This document shows positions 27,934-36,248 of a stretch of 64,000 nt of DNA, piece by piece. The stretch's first letter is position 1, and every line of letters begins with the position of its first letter. The notes beneath the pieces are model-generated. The model was not told the origin of the DNA and made no database searches. It saw only the letters and a list, made by a program, of their open reading frames with translations. The translations under genes were made by a program, and so were the position numbers. The DNA lies in the NCBI GenBank assembly GCA_964613035.1, contig CAZTFQ010000007.1, positions 8,409 through 72,408 of the forward strand, written 5' to 3'. This stretch comes from an uncultured Christensenellaceae bacterium (lineage in GTDB: Bacteria; Bacillota; Clostridia; Christensenellales; DTU072).

Positions 27934-28764
27934 ATGATAATTGAAAAAATCGATCTTTATAACTATTTCGGCATAAAAAAGGGCAACGTGAGCGGAGGAT
28001 ATCTCAGTACGTATTCCAGAGATTATCAAACCGAGATTAAGCGCAAGGTGCGTCCTGCGGTGCTGGTAATTCCGGGCGGAGCGTATACTATGGTTTCCGG
28101 CAGAGAAGGAGAGCCCGTCGCGCTCGGATTTTTGAACGAGGGCTATTCCGCTTTCGTCCTCGATTACAGCGTCAACGTCCCTTACCCGATCGCTTTTAAC
28201 GAAGCGCTCATGGCATTGGCTTATATCAGAGAAAACGCCGATAAATACTTTGTGGACGTAGAGCATATAGTCGCGATAGGTTTCTCCGCGGGCGGGCATC
28301 TTACGGGAACGATCGCGACCGCAACGGAAGAAGAACTGAAGAGCGTCCCGTTTTCCGTATCCAAGCCCGACGCTGTCGTCTTGTCGTACCCCGTCGTCAC
28401 TACGGGGGAATTCACTCACGAGATGACTAAAAACATCATCTCGGACAACGAGCGTATCGACCTCGAGAAGCTGTCCGTAGAGAAGAGAGTCGACGGAAAC
28501 AGCGTCCCGGCGTTCATTTGGCATACCTACGAGGACGGCGGCGTATCCGTAGAAAACTCCCTGATGCTAGCCGAGGCGTACAGAAAAGCGGGAGTGCCGT
28601 TTTCGCTGCATATTTTCGAGAAGGGTTGGCACGGACTCAGTGTCTGCAACCGCGAGACGGCAGACGATTCGCCCGAACACTTCGCGCTTGCGCACGTGAG
28701 CAAGTGGCTGGAGCTGGCTATCGATTGGCTGAGAACGAGAGGCTTCGAAGTAAAGAATATCTAG
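27934..28764 (+). CDS. Alpha/beta hydrolase (carbohydrate esterase/lipase-like)
   Basis: PAVLVIPGGAY, nucleophile GFSAGG, LSYPV, WHTYED..V, HG (catalytic His). Confidence 0.9.
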   Translation: MIIEKIDLYNYFGIKKGNVSGGYLSTYSRDYQTEIKRKVRPAVLVIPGGAYTMVSGREGEPVALGFLNEGYSAFVLDYSVNVPYPIAFNEALMALAYIRENADKYFVDVEHIVAIGFSAGGHLTGTIATATEEELKSVPFSVSKPDAVVLSYPVVTTGEFTHEMTKNIISDNERIDLEKLSVEKRVDGNSVPAFIWHTYEDGGVSVENSLMLAEAYRKAGVPFSLHIFEKGWHGLSVCNRETADDSPEHFALAHVSKWLELAIDWLRTRGFEVKNI

Positions 28765-30987: not shown

Positions 30988-31015
30988 AAAACGCTTGAGA
31001 AATCGAGCGTTTTTT
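30988..31015 (+). terminator. Intrinsic terminator after GH36
   Basis: AAAACGCTTGA-GAAA-TCGAGCGTTTTTT. Confidence 0.8.
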
Positions 31016-31069: not shown

Positions 31070-31099
31070 TTGACTTGTTAAGAGATAATTGTATATAAT
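31070..31099 (+). promoter_or_regulatory. sigmaA promoter of the enoate reductase/aconitase X operon
   Basis: TTGACT (31070-31075), 18 nt, TATAAT (31094-31099). Confidence 0.6.
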
Positions 31100-31132
31100 A
31101 TTCTTATCAACCTTTTAAGGGAGTTTTTGCGT

Positions 31133-33187
31133 ATGAAACAAGAGTATCAATCATTATTCACGCCTTGGAAAATAGGCAACTGCGAGATTAAAAACCGCAT
31201 CGTTATGACTTCTATGGGTGGCACGTCCATATTCGGCTGGATGGAGCCCAATCATTTCGACGAAGAAGCCGCCCGCTTTTTGCTCGAGAGAGCCCAAAAC
31301 AACGTCGGTCTTATCCTACCCGGCATCGCGCCCATAAGAGATATCCTCTTAGGCAAGTGGCTCTATCAGGGCAAAGGAAAGTTTAAGAAACTGAAAGCCT
31401 TCATGGAAGAATTTCACAAGACGGGAGCCAAACTTTTCGTTCAATTGACGGCGGGATTCGGCAGAAGCCTCGCCATCAACGATATTATGATTAAAGCTAT
31501 CCACAACAAGACTCTGGGCAAGGTTCTTAAGCCCGTTTTGGACGTGGATTATCTGACCGCCAGCGCGTCGCGTACCCCCAACAGATGGGATAATACTTGC
31601 TGGTCGCGTCCTCTGACCGTAGAAGAAATACACGAGATGATAGAAGCCTTCGCCAAGACGTCCCTTCTTTTGAAAGAAGCCGGCGTGGACGGTGTGGAAA
31701 TACACGCCGTGCACGAAGGATACCTCATAGATCAGTTCACGATGAGATACACCAATCTCCGTGACGACGAGTACGGCGGAAGTTTCGAGAATCGTTATCG
31801 CTTCCCCGTAGAGATAGTCAAGGCAATCAAAGAGCGTTGCGGAAAGGACTTCCCCGTCTCTTTACGTTACTCCGTTTTGTCCAAGACGAAAGGTTTCCAG
31901 GAAGGCGCTCTTCCCGGAGAAGAGTACGTAGAAGTCGGCAGAGATATGGAGGAATCGGAAAAAGCCGCCAAATATCTCCAGGACGCCGGTTACGATATGC
32001 TCAACTGCGACAACGGAACCTACGACGCCTGGTACTGGGCTCATCCCGCGCCTTATATGCCCGACAACTGCAACTTAGAGGACGTGGAGCATATTAAGAA
32101 GTTTGTCGATATTCCGGTCGTGTGCGCGGGCAAAATGACCCTCGACGCTGGTGCCAAGGCGGTAGGAGAAGGCCGTATAGACGCAATGGGCGTAGCGAGA
32201 CAATTCCTTACCGATCCCGAGTGGATAACCAAGCTTCTCGACGACGACGAAGAGTCCATTCATCCTTGCATACATTGTCACAACGCTTGCTTCAATATGG
32301 CGCATTACGAGGGCGTAGGCAACGATCAGTCTCTATCCGACAACGCCGGTATGGCAAGATGTGCGCTCAATCCTATGACGATGCAGTCAAAGAAATATAA
32401 AATCGTCCCCGCCAAGAAGATTAAAAGAGTTGCCGTTATCGGCGGCGGCATAGGCGGTATGGAAGTAGCCAGAGTCGCTACGATGAGAGGTCATAAGGTC
32501 ACTATTTACGAGAAGAGCTCCGTCCTCGGCGGCGTGTTCATCGCGGCAGCCGCACCGTCCTTTAAGGATAAGGATAAAGAACTCATCAAGTGGTACGAGA
32601 AGGAGATGAAAGACCTCGGAATAGAAATTAAGTTTAATACCGAGATAAAGGACGTCGATTCTCTCGACGCGGACGTCGTGGTCGTGGCAACGGGGTCCGT
32701 TGCGAGAAAGCTTCGCGTAAAAGGCGGAGAGAAGGCGATTGAGGCGTGCGATTATCTGCTCGGCAAAAAAGAAGTGGGCGACAGAGTAGTCGTCATAGGC
32801 GGCGGACTTACCGGCTGCGAAATGGCTCTCGACCTCTACAATAAGGGTAAGACGCCTATAATCGTCGAGATGAAAAACGATCTCGTCGCGGTCAAGGGCG
32901 TGTGCCTCGCCAACTCTTCATACCTCAGAGACTTCTTTAAGCTACACAAAGTGGACGTCAGACTCAATACGGGCGTCGCGGAGATCACCGACAACGGCGT
33001 CATAGTGGTGGATAAAGACGGCAATAAAGAGCTCATAGAGGCGGATTCCGTCGTGGCAAGTATCGGTTATATTCCCGCTCCGATCGCGGAAGGCAAAGGA
33101 AAAGTCAAACTGGTCGGCGACTGTAACGGCATAGGCAACCTCCGCACCGTCGTATGGCGCGCGTGGGACGTTGCGATGAAGATTTAA
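31133..33187 (+). CDS. Old-yellow-enzyme/Fe-S/FAD oxidoreductase (2-enoate reductase / 2,4-dienoyl-CoA reductase-like)
   Basis: ATG 31133 after AAGGGA. IKNRIVM, HAVHEGYL.DQF, DEYGGSFENR.RF, Fe-S motif CIHCHNAC...C, two GGGxxG FAD/NAD motifs. Confidence 0.9.
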   Translation: MKQEYQSLFTPWKIGNCEIKNRIVMTSMGGTSIFGWMEPNHFDEEAARFLLERAQNNVGLILPGIAPIRDILLGKWLYQGKGKFKKLKAFMEEFHKTGAKLFVQLTAGFGRSLAINDIMIKAIHNKTLGKVLKPVLDVDYLTASASRTPNRWDNTCWSRPLTVEEIHEMIEAFAKTSLLLKEAGVDGVEIHAVHEGYLIDQFTMRYTNLRDDEYGGSFENRYRFPVEIVKAIKERCGKDFPVSLRYSVLSKTKGFQEGALPGEEYVEVGRDMEESEKAAKYLQDAGYDMLNCDNGTYDAWYWAHPAPYMPDNCNLEDVEHIKKFVDIPVVCAGKMTLDAGAKAVGEGRIDAMGVARQFLTDPEWITKLLDDDEESIHPCIHCHNACFNMAHYEGVGNDQSLSDNAGMARCALNPMTMQSKKYKIVPAKKIKRVAVIGGGIGGMEVARVATMRGHKVTIYEKSSVLGGVFIAAAAPSFKDKDKELIKWYEKEMKDLGIEIKFNTEIKDVDSLDADVVVVATGSVARKLRVKGGEKAIEACDYLLGKKEVGDRVVVIGGGLTGCEMALDLYNKGKTPIIVEMKNDLVAVKGVCLANSSYLRDFFKLHKVDVRLNTGVAEITDNGVIVVDKDGNKELIEADSVVASIGYIPAPIAEGKGKVKLVGDCNGIGNLRTVVWRAWDVAMKI

Positions 33188-33197
33188 GGAGATTATT

Positions 33198-34469
33198 ATG
33201 GAACTGACTAAAAATCAACAGGAAATATTAGACGGCTCTCAAGGCGAGGTCATGGCTAAGATTATGAAGACTCTCGTCATGTACGGAGAGACTTTCGGCG
33301 CGACCAAAATGGTCCCCGTCACGTCTACCTACGGACATATTGTGACGAGCTTCGGCGTAATCGTAATCAAGGGCGTGTTCGACCTCATGGACAGACTGAT
33401 AGAAGCAGGAGTGACTTCCAAACAGAAGTTCTCCGCAGACCCCAGACCCGTCGATAAAAACGTGCCTAAGAATCTTCTTCAGGATATCGTATTCAAGGTT
33501 ATGTACGGTCCGCAAAAGAGATACGAGAAACAGCTTAAAGCTCTCGGACTGCTCTCCGACGACTCTTTCACCTGCGCGTGTTATTTCCCTGAAGTGGGCA
33601 ATCGTCCTAAAAAAGGAGATATCCTCTCCTGGGCAGAATCGTCCGCGGTCAATTACGCCAATTCAGTACTGGGCGCCAGATGTAACCGTAACTCGGGAAT
33701 AATAGAATTGTTCGGATCCATAGTCGGCTACGTGCCGTACTTCGGTCTCCTCACCGACGAGGGTAGAAAAGCGAGCTGGATTGTGGAGATCAAAACTTCA
33801 AAGAAGCCCGAAGCTCAGCTCCTAGGCTCCGCCATCGGAATGAAGGTCTTAGAGGACGTACCGTACATTAAAGGACTCGACAAGTGGATAGGCACGGAGC
33901 TCAACGACGAGGCTACGTCCTATCTTAAGGACTTCGGCGCGGCGACCGCCTCCAACGGTTCCGTAGGTCTATATCACGTGGAGAACCTCACCCCCGAAGC
34001 TGTGGAGATGGGCGAAAAACTTATCAAAGAGGATGCCAAAGTCTTCGTTGTGGATGACCAAACTCTCGAAAACGTTAAAAACTCTTATCCCGTCATTTGG
34101 GAGAACAAAGAAGCCAAGCCCAAGCTCTGCTTCATGGGATGTCCTCATATGACTCTCGCTCAGCTCAAGGATTGGACTCATCGCCTCGAAGAAAAACTCG
34201 AGAGCAAGGGCCGCAAGAGAGTGACGATTAAGACGGTCTTCACGTCGGCTCCCGCGGTCATTAAAGAATTTGAAAAGACCTCCGAGTACGCTCGCCTCAG
34301 GAAGATGGGCGTAGTGGTGTCCTATATATGTCCTCTGATGTATATGAACAACCCCCTGTGCGCCAAGATGCCCGTCATCACCAATTCCAATAAGCTCCGC
34401 ACGTATACTTCGTGCAGATACTATAGCGACCAAGAAATTCTCGATCAGATTACGGGAGGTAACAAGTAA
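33198..34469 (+). CDS. Aconitase X large (catalytic) subunit, DUF521-like
   Basis: FTCACY, WAESSAVNYANSVLGARCNRNS, GLYHVENLTPE, GCPH, YICP: the conserved AcnX pattern with three Cys ligands. Confidence 0.88.
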   Translation: MELTKNQQEILDGSQGEVMAKIMKTLVMYGETFGATKMVPVTSTYGHIVTSFGVIVIKGVFDLMDRLIEAGVTSKQKFSADPRPVDKNVPKNLLQDIVFKVMYGPQKRYEKQLKALGLLSDDSFTCACYFPEVGNRPKKGDILSWAESSAVNYANSVLGARCNRNSGIIELFGSIVGYVPYFGLLTDEGRKASWIVEIKTSKKPEAQLLGSAIGMKVLEDVPYIKGLDKWIGTELNDEATSYLKDFGAATASNGSVGLYHVENLTPEAVEMGEKLIKEDAKVFVVDDQTLENVKNSYPVIWENKEAKPKLCFMGCPHMTLAQLKDWTHRLEEKLESKGRKRVTIKTVFTSAPAVIKEFEKTSEYARLRKMGVVVSYICPLMYMNNPLCAKMPVITNSNKLRTYTSCRYYSDQEILDQITGGNK

Positions 34470-34906
34470 TGGAAAAGATTTTTTCGGGCAGAACGGTAGT
34501 CCCCGGGACCGTGACGTTAAAAGCACTGGTATCGAGAGAAGGTTTCAATACGCTGGCTTCTTTCAAAGATTGCTCCGAGGGTAAAAATATTTGTACGGAC
34601 CAGAACAATCGCGACCTGTACGGAAAGTCCACCGTGGGAGTGGCGCTGTGTCTTCCTCAGACCATAGGCTCCACTACGGGCGGTATGGTGCTGTACAATT
34701 CCGCCGTGATAGGATGCAATCCCGGCGCGATGTTATTCTCCAAGCCTATCGATTCTCTGGCGGCTGCCGGTGCGATTTTGGCTTCCGTTTGGACTCCCAA
34801 CAACATCCCCACCGTGGACGGACTGGGAGACGAATTCCTCGCGTACGTTCAGGACGGCGACGAGATAGAGATAACTTCCGACGGTAAAGTCATCGTCAGA
34901 AGATAA
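34469..34906 (+). CDS. Aconitase X small (swivel) subunit, DUF126-like
   Basis: V.G.ALVS, L.LP..IGSTTGG, DSLAAAGAIL, IP.VD, GDEIEI; translationally coupled (TAATG) to the large subunit. Confidence 0.85.
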   Translation: MEKIFSGRTVVPGTVTLKALVSREGFNTLASFKDCSEGKNICTDQNNRDLYGKSTVGVALCLPQTIGSTTGGMVLYNSAVIGCNPGAMLFSKPIDSLAAAGAILASVWTPNNIPTVDGLGDEFLAYVQDGDEIEITSDGKVIVRR

Positions 34907-34930
34907 ACCTTCGACTTAACTAAAACGGAC

Positions 34931-34962
34931 CTCCGCGGCGAGTATCGTCGCGGAGATTTTTT
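34931..34962 (+). terminator. Intrinsic terminator
   Basis: CTCCGCGGCG-AGTAT-CGTCGCGGAG-ATTTTTT. Confidence 0.8.
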
Positions 34963-35019
34963 ATATCGCCAAAAGGGAAATAAAACAGTAAAAAATCAAA
35001 GCGAAATTTTTTCATCCCG

Positions 35020-35047
35020 TTGACAATCGATTTTCAAAAAATATAAT
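35020..35047 (+). promoter_or_regulatory. Consensus sigmaA promoter
   Basis: TTGACA (35020-35025), 16 nt, TATAAT (35042-35047). Confidence 0.75.
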
Positions 35048-35087
35048 TATTTTTGTGGACGATCGTGTCTTAACGGGGGTGAAACAT

Positions 35088-36248
35088 ATGAGAGTTACCA
35101 AGACGTTTTTGATGCCCGATTATTATACGTCTTTTAAGTGTAAGACGGGAGAATGTCGTCATTCTTGCTGTGACGGCTGGCAGGTTACTTTTTCGCTGGA
35201 CGACTATTTCAGACTGGAGAGCGAGGAATGCGGCCCCGCGCTTAGAGACCGTATCGACAGAGGTGTGAAGATATCCCTTCACCCGACGCCCGAGGCGTAC
35301 GCCTACGTCGGTCGCGATTATTACGGCAATTGCCCGATGAGACTTCGTGACGGCAGGTGCGCTATTCACGCGGAGCTGGGCGAAGACGCTCTTGCCACGG
35401 TGTGTAGATTGTATCCGAGAGGGATAAGGACTCTTCCCGACTACGAGTGCTCTATGGCGAATAGTTGCGAGGGCGTGGTCGAAATGCTTCTCGACAGAAA
35501 AGATTCCGTTAAATTTATTAAAAACACTCTGACCGCGGACGTGCCGCCGTACGGTAGAAGAGCGTATAACTTCAAGACGTACGGTCGAGAGCAAGACGTC
35601 AGATTGAAATTGATATCTTTATTACAGGACCGCACGCGCCCTCTGAGCGCAAGAATAACAGCCCTCGGCAGAGCATTGGAGGACCTTTCCCGCGCGGTCT
35701 GTTCCGACGACGAAAAAGAGACCGAAGAATTTTTATCCGCGACTTATTCTGCGACTCCTTTAACCGATACGGTGACTAAGGAAGGTCTCGCGGAAGGACT
35801 GAAAACGGCAGAGGCTTTTTTAGAGCTTGTAGACGAGGACAGCGAAAGCGTCCGCGAATACGGCGAGACCGCTCTCGAGTATTTTTCGGACTCTTCCTTA
35901 GAAAGATATTACGCCGCGAAAAAGCTCTTCGAGACGACTGTTCCCGAGTGGGAAAATTGGTTCGAAAATCTCCTCGTCAACCATATGTTTTTTCAGCAGT
36001 TTCCTTTTCAGGACAGACCCGACACCCCTCTCGACGAATATATCGCGATATGCGCTATTTACGCGATGATGAGATTTTTGTGTATCGGCTCGGCATATAA
36101 AATTTCCGATCGGTCGGATGCGGTCGATATCGTTGCGGCGTTGTTCAGACTGGTCGACCATACGGACTTCGACAGATACGCCTCGGGACGCCTTAAGGCT
36201 CTCGGATGCGACACTCTCTCGGAACTCTTCGATTTGATATTGCTGTAG
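35088..36248 (+). CDS. FliB-like (flagellin lysine-N-methylase family) Cys-rich protein
   Basis: ATG 35088 after GGGGGT. PDYY..FKC..G.C.HSCC.GW.V, CP....G.C.IH..LG...L..VC..YPR, FENLLVN..F. Confidence 0.75.
   Translation: MRVTKTFLMPDYYTSFKCKTGECRHSCCDGWQVTFSLDDYFRLESEECGPALRDRIDRGVKISLHPTPEAYAYVGRDYYGNCPMRLRDGRCAIHAELGEDALATVCRLYPRGIRTLPDYECSMANSCEGVVEMLLDRKDSVKFIKNTLTADVPPYGRRAYNFKTYGREQDVRLKLISLLQDRTRPLSARITALGRALEDLSRAVCSDDEKETEEFLSATYSATPLTDTVTKEGLAEGLKTAEAFLELVDEDSESVREYGETALEYFSDSSLERYYAAKKLFETTVPEWENWFENLLVNHMFFQQFPFQDRPDTPLDEYIAICAIYAMMRFLCIGSAYKISDRSDAVDIVAALFRLVDHTDFDRYASGRLKALGCDTLSELFDLILL

Follow-up and report, generated by a model that had tools for sequence, protein, structure and literature searches.

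The question raised by this locus is why an Fe-S flavoenzyme of the 2-enoate-reductase type is encoded together with both subunits of an aconitase X (AcnX), and on which substrate such a trio might act. The window analysed is a stretch of 64,000 nucleotides from an uncultured Christensenellaceae bacterium, a small-genome gut Clostridia bacterium. The trio and its signals comprise:

31070..31099, + strand: sigma-70-type promoter-like site, TTGACT-18-TATAAT (11/12 consensus matches)
31117..31123, + strand: ribosome-binding site AAGGGAG of the reductase gene, 9 nt upstream of the ATG at 31133
31133..33187, + strand: Fe-S flavoenzyme, 2-enoate-reductase type ("type A"), 684 aa (ORF; Pfam PF00724 and Pyr_redox_2)
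33198..34469, + strand: AcnX large subunit, 423 aa, type II (PF04412)
34469..34906, + strand: AcnX small (swivel) subunit, 145 aa (PF01989; aligns with TK1248, 7cnr_B)
34931..34965, + strand: intrinsic-terminator-like hairpin (34931-34955; 11-bp stem with 8 G-C pairs) followed by a T-run (from the sequence)

The initial annotation had described a stand-alone operon, and the open reading frames were found exactly as claimed: the trio, including promoter and terminator, spans 31070-34965, with a single promoter, three coupled genes and a single terminator. The reductase gene starts with the ATG at 31133, with an additional in-frame TTG at 31127; AAGGAG precedes the ATG of the AcnX large-subunit gene at 33198, 10 nt after the reductase stop codon, and the two AcnX genes share one base (TAATG) and are thus translationally coupled. 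The promoter-like site begins 57 nt past the terminator of the upstream GH36 gene (30988-31013), and the downstream FliB-like gene has a promoter of its own (12/12; 35020-35047); the flanking genes are separate transcription units. The GC content of the operon (approximately 0.50) is no different from that of its surroundings.

The reductase (PF00724, residues 7-368; Pyr_redox_2, residues 510-656) meets all parts of the family "2-ER" criterion, i.e. an N-terminal OYE/FMN barrel, a CX2CX3C...C cluster motif (here the four-Cys motif CIHCHNAC...C at residue 378, with the fourth Cys 23 residues further) and a C-terminal FAD/NAD(P) domain. It forms a distinct clade with 100% support and a long stem, in which HA[VI]HEGYLLDQF is invariant (HAVHEGY across 67 sequences), HEGY carrying the catalytic Tyr; the HAVHEGYL motif is one that we take to be typical of characterised clostridial 2-enoate/cinnamate-type reductases. 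The enzyme is 40-51% identical to homologues in a 4-Mb Clostridia genome, the HxxHEGYL motif being common to the 48-51% ones, and an 80%-identical protein carries the JGI name "2-enoate reductase". Its best PDB matches are NCR (6qkg, 210 bits) and FadH (1ps9), and its identity to the CoA-ester reductases in the PDB is about 25-30%. NADH-dependent reduction of free 2-enoates is thus an inference from similarity and the JGI name only, and free-acid specificity is not proven, since CoA esters are the substrates of the closest reductases of solved structure. The bilirubin reductase BilR (336 bits against an NCBIfam cut-off of 750) and the bile-acid enzyme BaiCD (309 against 825) were rejected as identities. 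In a published sequence-similarity network (PMC11759058), the catalytic Tyr (Tyr196 of OYE1) is reported to be strictly conserved in cluster 4 and in the DCR-containing cluster 1, whereas the cluster with the amine dehydrogenases has His in its place; the window's enzyme has the Tyr of the alkene reducers, not the His.

Both AcnX subunits score above the Pfam cut-offs (large, PF04412, 310 bits; small, PF01989, 47.9 bits), and the best solved-structure match of the large subunit is TkAcnX (7cnr, 145 bits). In the T. kodakarensis reference, the [4Fe-4S]/[3Fe-4S] cluster is held by Cys110, Cys283 and Cys342, and carboxylate and 3-hydroxyl are bound by Glu129, Ser130, Ser131, Lys361 and Tyr365, with Ser62/Thr63 of the small subunit. 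C126 and C315 of the window's large subunit align with cluster-ligand Cys and C378 with a Cys of AtAcnX; E147-S148-S149 and K399/Y403 (SNK399LRTY403) align with the carboxylate and 3-hydroxyl binders; and the small-subunit motif GSTTG corresponds in the alignment to GSTVG in TK1248, which contains the Ser62 base and Thr63 of TkAcnX. The three Cys ligands, the carboxylate/3-hydroxyl binders and the Ser are all kept and do not vary among 79 orthologs. The homologous residues of solved AcnX enzymes hold the carboxylate, the C3-hydroxyl and the C1-C2-C3 backbone, with the small-subunit Ser at C2 (PMC8184944). As judged by alignment, this AcnX retains all catalytic features of the solved enzymes.

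The substrate-specific residues are another matter. Neither of the two phosphate binders of phosphomevalonate dehydratase (PMDh) is retained in the trio's AcnX clade, an invariant Asp81 standing in place of Asn79 and Val, Ile or Leu in place of Asn53; an aromatic-rich insertion of about eight residues follows residue 86 relative to TkAcnX. The position of Asp203, which binds the nitrogen in the cis-3-hydroxy-L-proline (C3LHyp) enzyme, is occupied by Ile, Val or His in the alignment, never by Asp. In the loop at about residues 46-54, the alignment could be shifted by 1-2 positions, so that any reading of the pocket remains soft. The trio's AcnX is, by its predicted pocket, an uncharacterised type II subclass without the substrate-specific residues of either characterised activity; subclasses IIc-f are explicitly uncharacterised (PMC8184944).

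The initial annotation had named, as a refuting outcome, an AcnX that behaves as a hydroxyproline or mevalonate-phosphate dehydratase, and had noted that the usual neighbours of these enzymes are missing; both checks went its way. C3LHyp dehydratase was rejected (NF051439, 137 bits against a 700-bit cut-off; Asp203 not kept): no proline-racemase-like or Pyr2C reductase genes occur among the neighbours of 80 AcnX loci, and Pro_racemase, found in one of eight carrier genomes, is missing in the other seven. A bacterial PMDh of the modified mevalonate pathway is suggested by the closest solved homologue, TkAcnX, a mevalonate-5-phosphate dehydratase; this identity was also rejected, and the idea is already contradicted and scarcely tenable, given that Asn53 and Asn79 are replaced, that HMG-CoA reductase (PF00368) and UbiD (PF01977) were each found in none of the eight carrier genomes (controls positive), and that AcnX is partnered by a reductase instead of a decarboxylase.

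A substrate with an alpha- or gamma-amine is a wider proposal, in which AcnX converts a 3-hydroxyproline-like compound, another beta-hydroxy amino acid or carnitine to an enamine/imine or to crotonobetaine, and the flavoenzyme forms proline or gamma-butyrobetaine. C3LHyp dehydration is the activity of characterised bacterial AcnX, the invariant Asp81, set amid hydrophobic residues, might serve as the counter-ion of an ammonium group, genes for polar amino-acid ABC transporters adjoin the trio in a few loci (3 of the 63 neighbours on the upstream side), and E. coli has an analogous CoA-dependent route from carnitine via crotonobetaine to gamma-butyrobetaine. We consider the proposal improbable, however, in view of the low C3LHyp score, the lost Asp203 and the general lack of Pro_racemase; a BCCT transporter was not seen among the trio's neighbours, carnitine is scarce in herbivores, the main source of carriers, and the reductase has the Tyr of the DCR-containing cluster rather than the amine-dehydrogenase His (criterion from PMC11759058).

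Whether the two enzymes belong together was examined by comparison of genomes. An orthologous reductase adjoins AcnX in 62 of 80 related GTDB loci, in either gene order, and in three of the 80, as well as in three further genomes, it is replaced by a "type B" Fe-S flavoenzyme (29% identical, 753-786 aa); 11 of the 12 genomes with a lone AcnX encode a reductase ortholog elsewhere. The adjacency, non-conservation of which would have spoken against the proposal of the initial annotation, is conserved. The AcnX pocket residues are identical with either reductase type as partner. Among 300 Clostridia genomes, every checkable AcnX-bearing genome has a type A or type B reductase, while six of the 19 reductase-bearing genomes, including genomes of 0.8-1.0 Mb, have no AcnX; because it stands alone in these six, the reductase has a function that does not depend on AcnX. 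This asymmetric co-occurrence fits a dehydratase that feeds a reductase. The AcnX tree and the reductase tree agree in grouping the window with Ruminococcus bicirculans, a Lachnospiraceae MAG and Anaeroplasma (99% support), and the trio therefore moves horizontally as a unit. The tie between the two enzyme clades extends over more than 580 species of GTDB and more than 8000 protein clusters; common gut Clostridia of humans and ruminants are among them, and carriers are mostly from herbivore guts. No conserved transporter, regulator or riboswitch was found among the neighbours of the related loci, and the context therefore yields no clue to the substrate; neither was a CoA ligase or transferase linked to the trio among these neighbours.

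The same data bear on the notion of a linkage without a shared substrate, with the flavoenzyme acting as a general NADH oxidase, as an ene-reductase for detoxification or as an enzyme that maintains the oxygen-labile cluster of AcnX by reduction, and AcnX belonging to an unrelated pathway. The reductase does stand alone in 6 of 19 genomes, tiny ones included, and neither gene has other pathway partners nearby; but two different reductase types have been recruited beside the same AcnX, adjacency persists though gene order varies, the two trees are congruent, and the genes are translationally packed in one operon, which makes this notion very unlikely. A reverse or dienoate route could exist in principle, in which the first step is desaturation of an acid or reduction of a 2,4-dienoate by the flavoenzyme; the resulting 2-enoate would then be hydrated by AcnX, giving a 3-hydroxy acid in a step akin to beta-oxidation or serving detoxification. 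Some family members are oxidative (BaiCD), FadH reduces dienoyl substrates, and aconitase-type enzymes are reversible. On the other hand, the NAD+-dependent oxidation of a saturated acid is thermodynamically very unfavourable for a fermenter, no conserved 3-hydroxy-acid dehydrogenase or thiolase-like partner lies near the trio, and the reductase is sometimes alone whereas AcnX without a reductase was not seen in the checkable Clostridia genomes, which fits AcnX as the upstream enzyme; we regard this route as quite unlikely.

We favour, as probable though by no means certain, that the operon encodes a CoA-independent two-enzyme module for "reductive beta-dehydroxylation" of a free carboxylic acid. 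AcnX, a heterodimer with a [4Fe-4S] cluster, would hold a 3-hydroxy acid by its carboxylate and its 3-hydroxyl, the small-subunit serine would abstract the C2 proton, and a 2-enoate would be released; the Fe-S flavoenzyme would then pass two electrons from NAD(P)H via FAD, [4Fe-4S] and FMN to the C=C bond, yielding the saturated acid. The near-equilibrium dehydration would be pulled by the strongly exergonic reduction, and on balance the module would allow a fermenting anaerobe of the gut to dispose of NADH. The direction, the use of cofactors, a free acid rather than a CoA ester as substrate, and the physiological role including that of an electron sink are inferred; no activity or transcript data were found. 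The initial annotation had proposed this order of dehydration and reduction, and it is supported by both of the refutation tests set there, its substrate and its role as electron sink remaining inferences. That annotation knew of no described pathway with the AcnX-OYE pairing, and we likewise found no description of an AcnX-enoate reductase pairing in the literature.

Concerning the substrate of the proposed module, the hydrophobic residues and the invariant Asp81 at the phosphate-binder positions would favour a 3-hydroxy acid that has a single carboxylate and a tail either uncharged or cationic. On this soft reading, the predicted pocket favours 3-hydroxybutyrate or short 3-hydroxyalkanoates, 3-aryl-3-hydroxypropionates, mevalonate-like diols or carnitine-like amines, and disfavours malate, citrate and phosphorylated acids.

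The pocket thus bears on the possibility that the same two steps act on a di- or tricarboxylic acid (malate via fumarate to succinate, citramalate via mesaconate to methylsuccinate, or citrate via aconitate to tricarballylate). AcnX would then be a hydratase of the fumarase or aconitase kind, and the flavoenzyme a soluble fumarate or aconitate reductase that uses NADH. AcnX is a member of the aconitase superfamily, class I fumarase is missing in six of eight carrier genomes, a distant AcnX (29% identical) stands in an operon with a LeuCD-type aconitase, PrpF, PrpD, an ICL/PEP-mutase-family lyase and an OYE, and plant organic acids are abundant in herbivore guts, where most carriers come from. 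However, there is no extra Arg or Lys at the distal-anion positions of TkAcnX, the hydrophobic residues and Asp81 would be expected to repel a further carboxylate group, two carrier genomes have the trio alongside class I fumarase, and no dicarboxylate transporter is conserved near the trio; we consider such a substrate unlikely, without dismissing it.

Within the favoured monocarboxylic reading, our leading guess, a tentative one that is more likely wrong than right, is (R)-3-hydroxybutyrate or another short 3-hydroxyalkanoate, converted via crotonate to butyrate without CoA. (R)-3-Hydroxybutyrate occurs as a ketone body in the host and is the building block of PHB in bacteria. In models of the human colonic microbiota, the conversion of beta-hydroxybutyrate to butyrate varies from person to person (PMC7244492). 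If the guess holds, the trio would supply a gene marker for this difference, and the long-sought physiological role of the clostridial "2-butenoate" reductases.

Strong comparative evidence ties one clade of AcnX to one of enoate reductases. If the module exists as proposed, it would represent a new, thioester-free way of beta-hydroxyl removal and NADH disposal in anaerobes, a third activity of the AcnX family, and a physiological context for 2-enoate reductases, whose natural role has been debated since 1980; the module would yield a saturated acid, which might be a short-chain fatty acid of relevance to the host.

Among known systems, archaeal PMDh (AcnX type IIb; T. kodakarensis TK1249/TK1248, 7cnr/7cns, and A. 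pernix) has the same two-subunit build, Cys ligands, Glu-Ser-Ser, Lys/Tyr and Ser base, whereas the trio differs in the replaced phosphate binders, the insertion after residue 86, the ene-reductase partner and its occurrence in carriers without the mevalonate pathway or UbiD. In the C3LHyp pathway, the downstream enzyme is a Pyr2C reductase of other protein families, not an Fe-S OYE. C3LHyp dehydratase itself shares the superfamily and the beta-elimination chemistry, and a reductase step follows in its pathway (PMC8184944), but the trio's AcnX reaches only 60-66 bits to its PDB chains and has no hydroxyproline genes in its context.

The clostridial 2-enoate reductases (EC 1.3.1.31; 2-butenoate reductase of C. 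kluyveri and C. tyrobutyricum, and FldZ of C. sporogenes, a cinnamate reductase of 665 aa; PMC5882074) have the same three-cofactor architecture at a similar length, and their substrates are free alpha,beta-unsaturated carboxylates. The trio's reductase differs from this family in the spacer before the fourth Cys (23 residues, compared with 11-12 in the family motif) and as a distinct clade that is hard-wired to an AcnX dehydratase, a linkage not described for any characterised enoate reductase.

The CoA-dependent routes (crotonase with butyryl-CoA dehydrogenase; CaiD with CaiA in the carnitine respiration of E. coli) follow the same logic, from 3-hydroxy acid via 2-enoate to saturated acid as an electron sink. 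These routes, however, use CoA thioesters, crotonase-fold hydratases and acyl-CoA dehydrogenases, whereas the enzymes of the trio belong to unrelated families.

The three genes lie on the plus strand at the positions assigned in the initial annotation, as confirmed by ORF calls, and its description of three coupled genes under a single promoter and a single terminator is borne out by sites at both ends of the operon:

31070-31099, plus strand: promoter-like site TTGACT-18-TATAAT, 11/12 matches
31133-33187, plus strand: Fe-S flavoenzyme gene (684 aa; ORF call), with the ribosome-binding site AAGGGAG 9 nt 5' of the ATG
33198-34469, plus strand: aconitase X (AcnX) large-subunit gene (423 aa; ORF call), with AAGGAG within the 10-base gap after the first gene
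34469-34906, plus strand: AcnX small-subunit gene (145 aa), with a one-base overlap with the second gene (TAATG)
34931-34965, plus strand: terminator-like 11-bp G+C-rich hairpin with a T-run (sequence scan)

The upstream GH36 alpha-galactosidase gene has a terminator of its own and the downstream gene for a FliB-like lysine methylase has a 12/12 promoter of its own; because of these separate signals of both flanking genes, the trio is regarded as a self-contained transcription unit. No GC anomaly of the trio against its surroundings was found when G+C was compared within the window. A look for sequencing runs turned up none of RNA, and only 5% of the sampled words were present in DNA runs. The downstream gene (35055-36248, plus strand) encodes a homologue of flagellin lysine-N-methylase (FliB; NF038110, 181 bits, cut-off 85) behind a perfect sigma-70 promoter at 35020-35047, in a gut Clostridia genome of 1.65 Mb. 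Two genes upstream of the trio (27934-28764, plus strand), an alpha/beta hydrolase is encoded with a match to BD-FAE, a family of bifunctional feruloyl/acetyl-xylan esterases; such an enzyme could free hydroxycinnamates, which are classic enoate-reductase substrates, and its linkage to the trio is not kept in other loci.

The first protein comprises an OYE/FMN barrel (PF00724, residues 7-368), a pyridine-nucleotide-disulfide-type FAD/NAD domain (Pfam) and the Cys motif CIHCHNAC with a fourth Cys, i.e. the Fe-S flavoenzyme architecture (reviewed in PMC11574389), and it meets every testable membership feature of the Fe-S flavoenzyme family of the 2-enoate-reductase kind; an 80%-identical protein is labelled '2-enoate reductase' by JGI. 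Among proteins of solved structure it comes closest to 2-naphthoyl-CoA reductase (210 bits), then to 2,4-dienoyl-CoA reductase, and it is 40-51% identical to three paralogues of 665-676 aa in a 4-Mb Clostridia genome. The motif HA[VI]HEGYLLDQF is invariant across its clade and is common also to the closest of these paralogues; the Tyr of this motif is the proton donor, and it is strictly conserved in clusters 1 (which contains DCR) and 4 of a published sequence-similarity network (SSN), with His instead in the amine-dehydrogenase cluster (PMC11759058). Identities as bilirubin reductase (BilR; 336 bits against a curated cut-off of 750) and as BaiCD (309 bits against 825) were rejected.

By Pfam, the second protein is the large subunit of AcnX (PF04412, 310 bits) and the third its small swivel subunit (PF01989), and together they meet every testable membership feature of the type II family. 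In mevalonate-5-phosphate dehydratase of T. kodakarensis (PMDh; TkAcnX), the cluster is ligated by Cys110, Cys283 and Cys342, the carboxylate and C3-OH are bound by Glu129, Ser130, Ser131, Lys361 and Tyr365, and the small subunit contributes Ser62, the base at C2, and also Thr63 (Watanabe et al., PMC8184944). The aligned counterparts, i.e. C126, C315 and C378, E147-S148-S149, K399 and Y403 in SNKLRTY, and GSTTG in the small subunit, are all invariant in 79 orthologs.

PMDh is also the closest solved structure to the large subunit (145 bits; cis-3-hydroxy-L-proline (C3LHyp) dehydratases reach 60-66 bits), and a PMDh identity was weighed and rejected. The phosphate of the TkAcnX substrate is bound by the main chain of residues 48-50, Asn53 and Asn79 (PMC8184944); in the window AcnX and its orthologs, the Asn79 position is an invariant Asp81 and the Asn53 position Val, Ile or Leu; the loop has the sequence GH(I/L)VTSFG, and its alignment is uncertain by 1-2 positions. 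Furthermore, genome-wide searches found neither HMG-CoA reductase (0/8) nor UbiD (0/8) in the eight genomes that carry the trio. A C3LHyp dehydratase identity was rejected as well (137 bits with the NCBIfam model, cut-off 700). The proline nitrogen is bound by Asp203 in the C3LHyp dehydratase AtAcnX, and for amine-bearing acids, another class of substrate considered, no alignment of the window AcnX placed an Asp at this position; a proline-racemase-family gene was found in only one of the eight carrier genomes. With landmark residues replaced and partner genes wanting, AcnX is neither dehydratase, in agreement with the initial annotation, which had set it apart from both. The landmark residues of the two activities are both missing from AcnX subclasses IIc-IIf, none of which has been characterised (PMC8184944). 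The clade of the window AcnX is one of these, its letter being undetermined, since the supplement of Watanabe 2021 leaves IIc-f unnamed.

Databases contain more than 8000 relatives of the large subunit, of which the best 120 are at least 80% identical, and an AcnX relative is encoded in at least 582 GTDB species representatives. The adjacency of the OYE-type gene and AcnX, on which the earlier proposal depended, proved to be conserved. Among the best 80 loci (AcnX identity 69-87%), an ortholog of the 684-aa reductase (type A; 60-81% identity) directly adjoins AcnX in 62, mostly upstream and in six downstream; a second Fe-S flavoenzyme of only 29% identity (type B; 755-786 aa) takes its place in three, and 15 have no reductase within the DNA examined. 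For 12 of these 15 loci the genome was searched, and a type A ortholog (59-71% identity) is encoded elsewhere in 11. Of 300 evenly sampled Clostridia genomes, about 20 encode an AcnX ortholog, 19 type A, and 13 both; where AcnX genomes without type A were inspected (three genera), type B directly adjoined in all. The reductase without AcnX was found in six of the 300 genomes, three of these of only 0.8-1.0 Mb. Hence AcnX essentially never occurs without either of the two Fe-S flavoenzymes, and the reductase can stand alone. Unrelated functions of the two enzymes and the reverse reaction direction were weighed as explanations; the asymmetry is as expected if AcnX supplies the substrate of the reductase, with reduction pulling a near-equilibrium step. 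The AcnX pocket residues are the same beside type A or type B, which speaks for a single substrate to which two reductases were recruited. That the trio is a real functional module is well supported, with its substrate open.

In the window's own order, four sampled genomes of 0.8-1.0 Mb and 99-100% completeness (G105, G158, G132, G286) keep the 684-aa type A reductase, and AcnX is missing in three of the four; the reductase evidently matters on its own to these reduced-genome organisms.

In the trees of both the AcnX large subunit and the reductase, the window falls into a 99%-supported group with Ruminococcus bicirculans (Oscillospiraceae) and two MAGs, one of Lachnospiraceae and one of Anaeroplasma (Mycoplasmatota), at branch lengths of 0.1-0.3; in the AcnX tree only, an Erysipelotrichaceae MAG joins this group. 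The window's own order forms a separate, apparently vertical reductase clade (the same four genomes and G008). This grouping in both trees, together with the separate clade, indicates that the trio was acquired as a unit. Its patchy occurrence (about 7% of Clostridia genomes; present and absent inside one genus) indicates an accessory trait, not a housekeeping function, and tRNA genes flank the trio in several loci.

The genomic context gave no clue to the substrate. Clustering of all ORFs of the 80 loci revealed no common conserved genes besides the trio, and among 118 immediate neighbours (Pfam) only a MarR gene (in 4-6 of the 63 upstream positions) and an ABC system for polar amino acids (3/63) recur, the rest being unrelated; the neighbours of reductase-only, type B and unlinked loci are also unrelated (FIST, patatin, EAL, Mur ligase, UvrB, polysaccharide genes). 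Searching 13 loci that have long upstream regions against Rfam yielded no riboswitch or leader, only tRNAs. The Rex-box (TTGTTAAN4TTAACAA, up to 2 mismatches) was matched in 7/58 trio upstream regions compared with 11/254 other intergenic regions (p = 0.05); this enrichment is marginal, partly confounded by -35 boxes, and no more than a lead, and there is no Rex-like site upstream of the window's trio. A Rex-box-like palindrome, TTGTTGAC-N2-4-GTCAACAA, was noted upstream of the trio or its MarR gene in loci L076, L039, L046, L058, L055 and L067.

AcnX paralogs of 40-43% identity at two further loci (L091, 7971-9718; L092, 7965-9667) were uninformative, as catalytic residues are lost (E147 to G or D, S148 to P, K399 to V, and two Cys ligands in one case). 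They are still conserved beside a HisA/HisF-like gene and a nucleotidyltransferase gene, and could either be pseudo-enzymes or serve some new function.

The mechanism that we judge most likely, with somewhat better than even confidence, is a CoA-independent dehydration and reduction: AcnX would dehydrate a free 3-hydroxy acid to the 2-enoate, which the reductase would turn into the saturated acid at the expense of NAD(P)H, and regeneration of NAD+ would be the physiological gain. Independence of CoA is inferred because a CoA ligase or transferase is never linked to the trio. The distal pocket of AcnX is hydrophobic (I/L48, V49, F52, V/I/L54, small-subunit L29), with Thr/Ser and a single invariant Asp, and it has gained neither Arg nor Lys. 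Judged from these residues alone, it would speak against phosphorylated and di- or tricarboxylic substrates, and may favour a monocarboxylate whose tail is alkyl, aryl, hydroxylated or cationic.

Dicarboxylates were considered also in view of a distant AcnX pair (29% identical; locus L099, G157:C3:54381-71514, minus strand) in one long co-directional cluster with genes for a LeuC/LeuD-type aconitase, PrpF, MmgE/PrpD, a PEP-mutase/isocitrate-lyase-family protein, a split transketolase and three Zn-ADH-type proteins, and with an OYE-type gene at the contig edge. This cluster resembles a pathway that breaks down a branched polycarboxylic acid; AcnX of other subclasses may thus act on polycarboxylic acids, which at 29% identity would have little bearing on the window AcnX.

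For the dehydration-reduction route, 3-hydroxybutyrate or short 3-hydroxyalkanoates, yielding butyrate via crotonate, are a first guess of low probability and not a finding. It rests on the link of crotonate to enoate reductases, the availability of the compound, the gut origin of the carriers and its variable conversion to butyrate by human microbiota. EC 1.3.1.31 takes its name from its substrate crotonate, and 3-hydroxybutyrate is available in guts (host ketogenesis) and in digesters (PHB). AcnX carriers derive from ruminant, human and poultry guts; those in culture include Mediterraneibacter agrestimuris DSM 111629 (locus L079) and Ruminococcus bicirculans (locus L004). One enzyme purified from C. 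kluyveri was given the annotation 2-butenoate reductase (PMC5882074), and human microbiota vary in how they convert D-beta-hydroxybutyrate to butyrate (PMC7244492). FldZ-type enzymes accept aromatic enoates only (PMC5882074), which makes 3-aryl-3-hydroxypropionates a fair alternative.

Both protein families, AcnX type II and the Fe-S flavoenzymes of the 2-enoate-reductase kind, are known, and the membership criteria of the characterised subfamilies (PMDh, C3LHyp dehydratase, BilR, BaiCD) are not met. The pairing of AcnX and reductase is not mentioned in the searched literature on aconitase X, DUF521/DUF126, tricarballylate and Fe-S flavoenzyme clusters, including Pascal Andreu 2020 and the SSN study of the 2-ER family (PMC11759058); the statement that no pathway with this pairing has been described therefore stands for the literature searched, which gives no description of the pairing or of this AcnX subclass, and hence none of the pathway. 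Beyond these known systems, four things are new here: the genome-level co-occurrence asymmetry, the type B reductase as neighbour of an AcnX whose pocket residues are unchanged, the joint transfer of the three genes in congruent trees, and the genome-wide lack of mevalonate and hydroxyproline partners.
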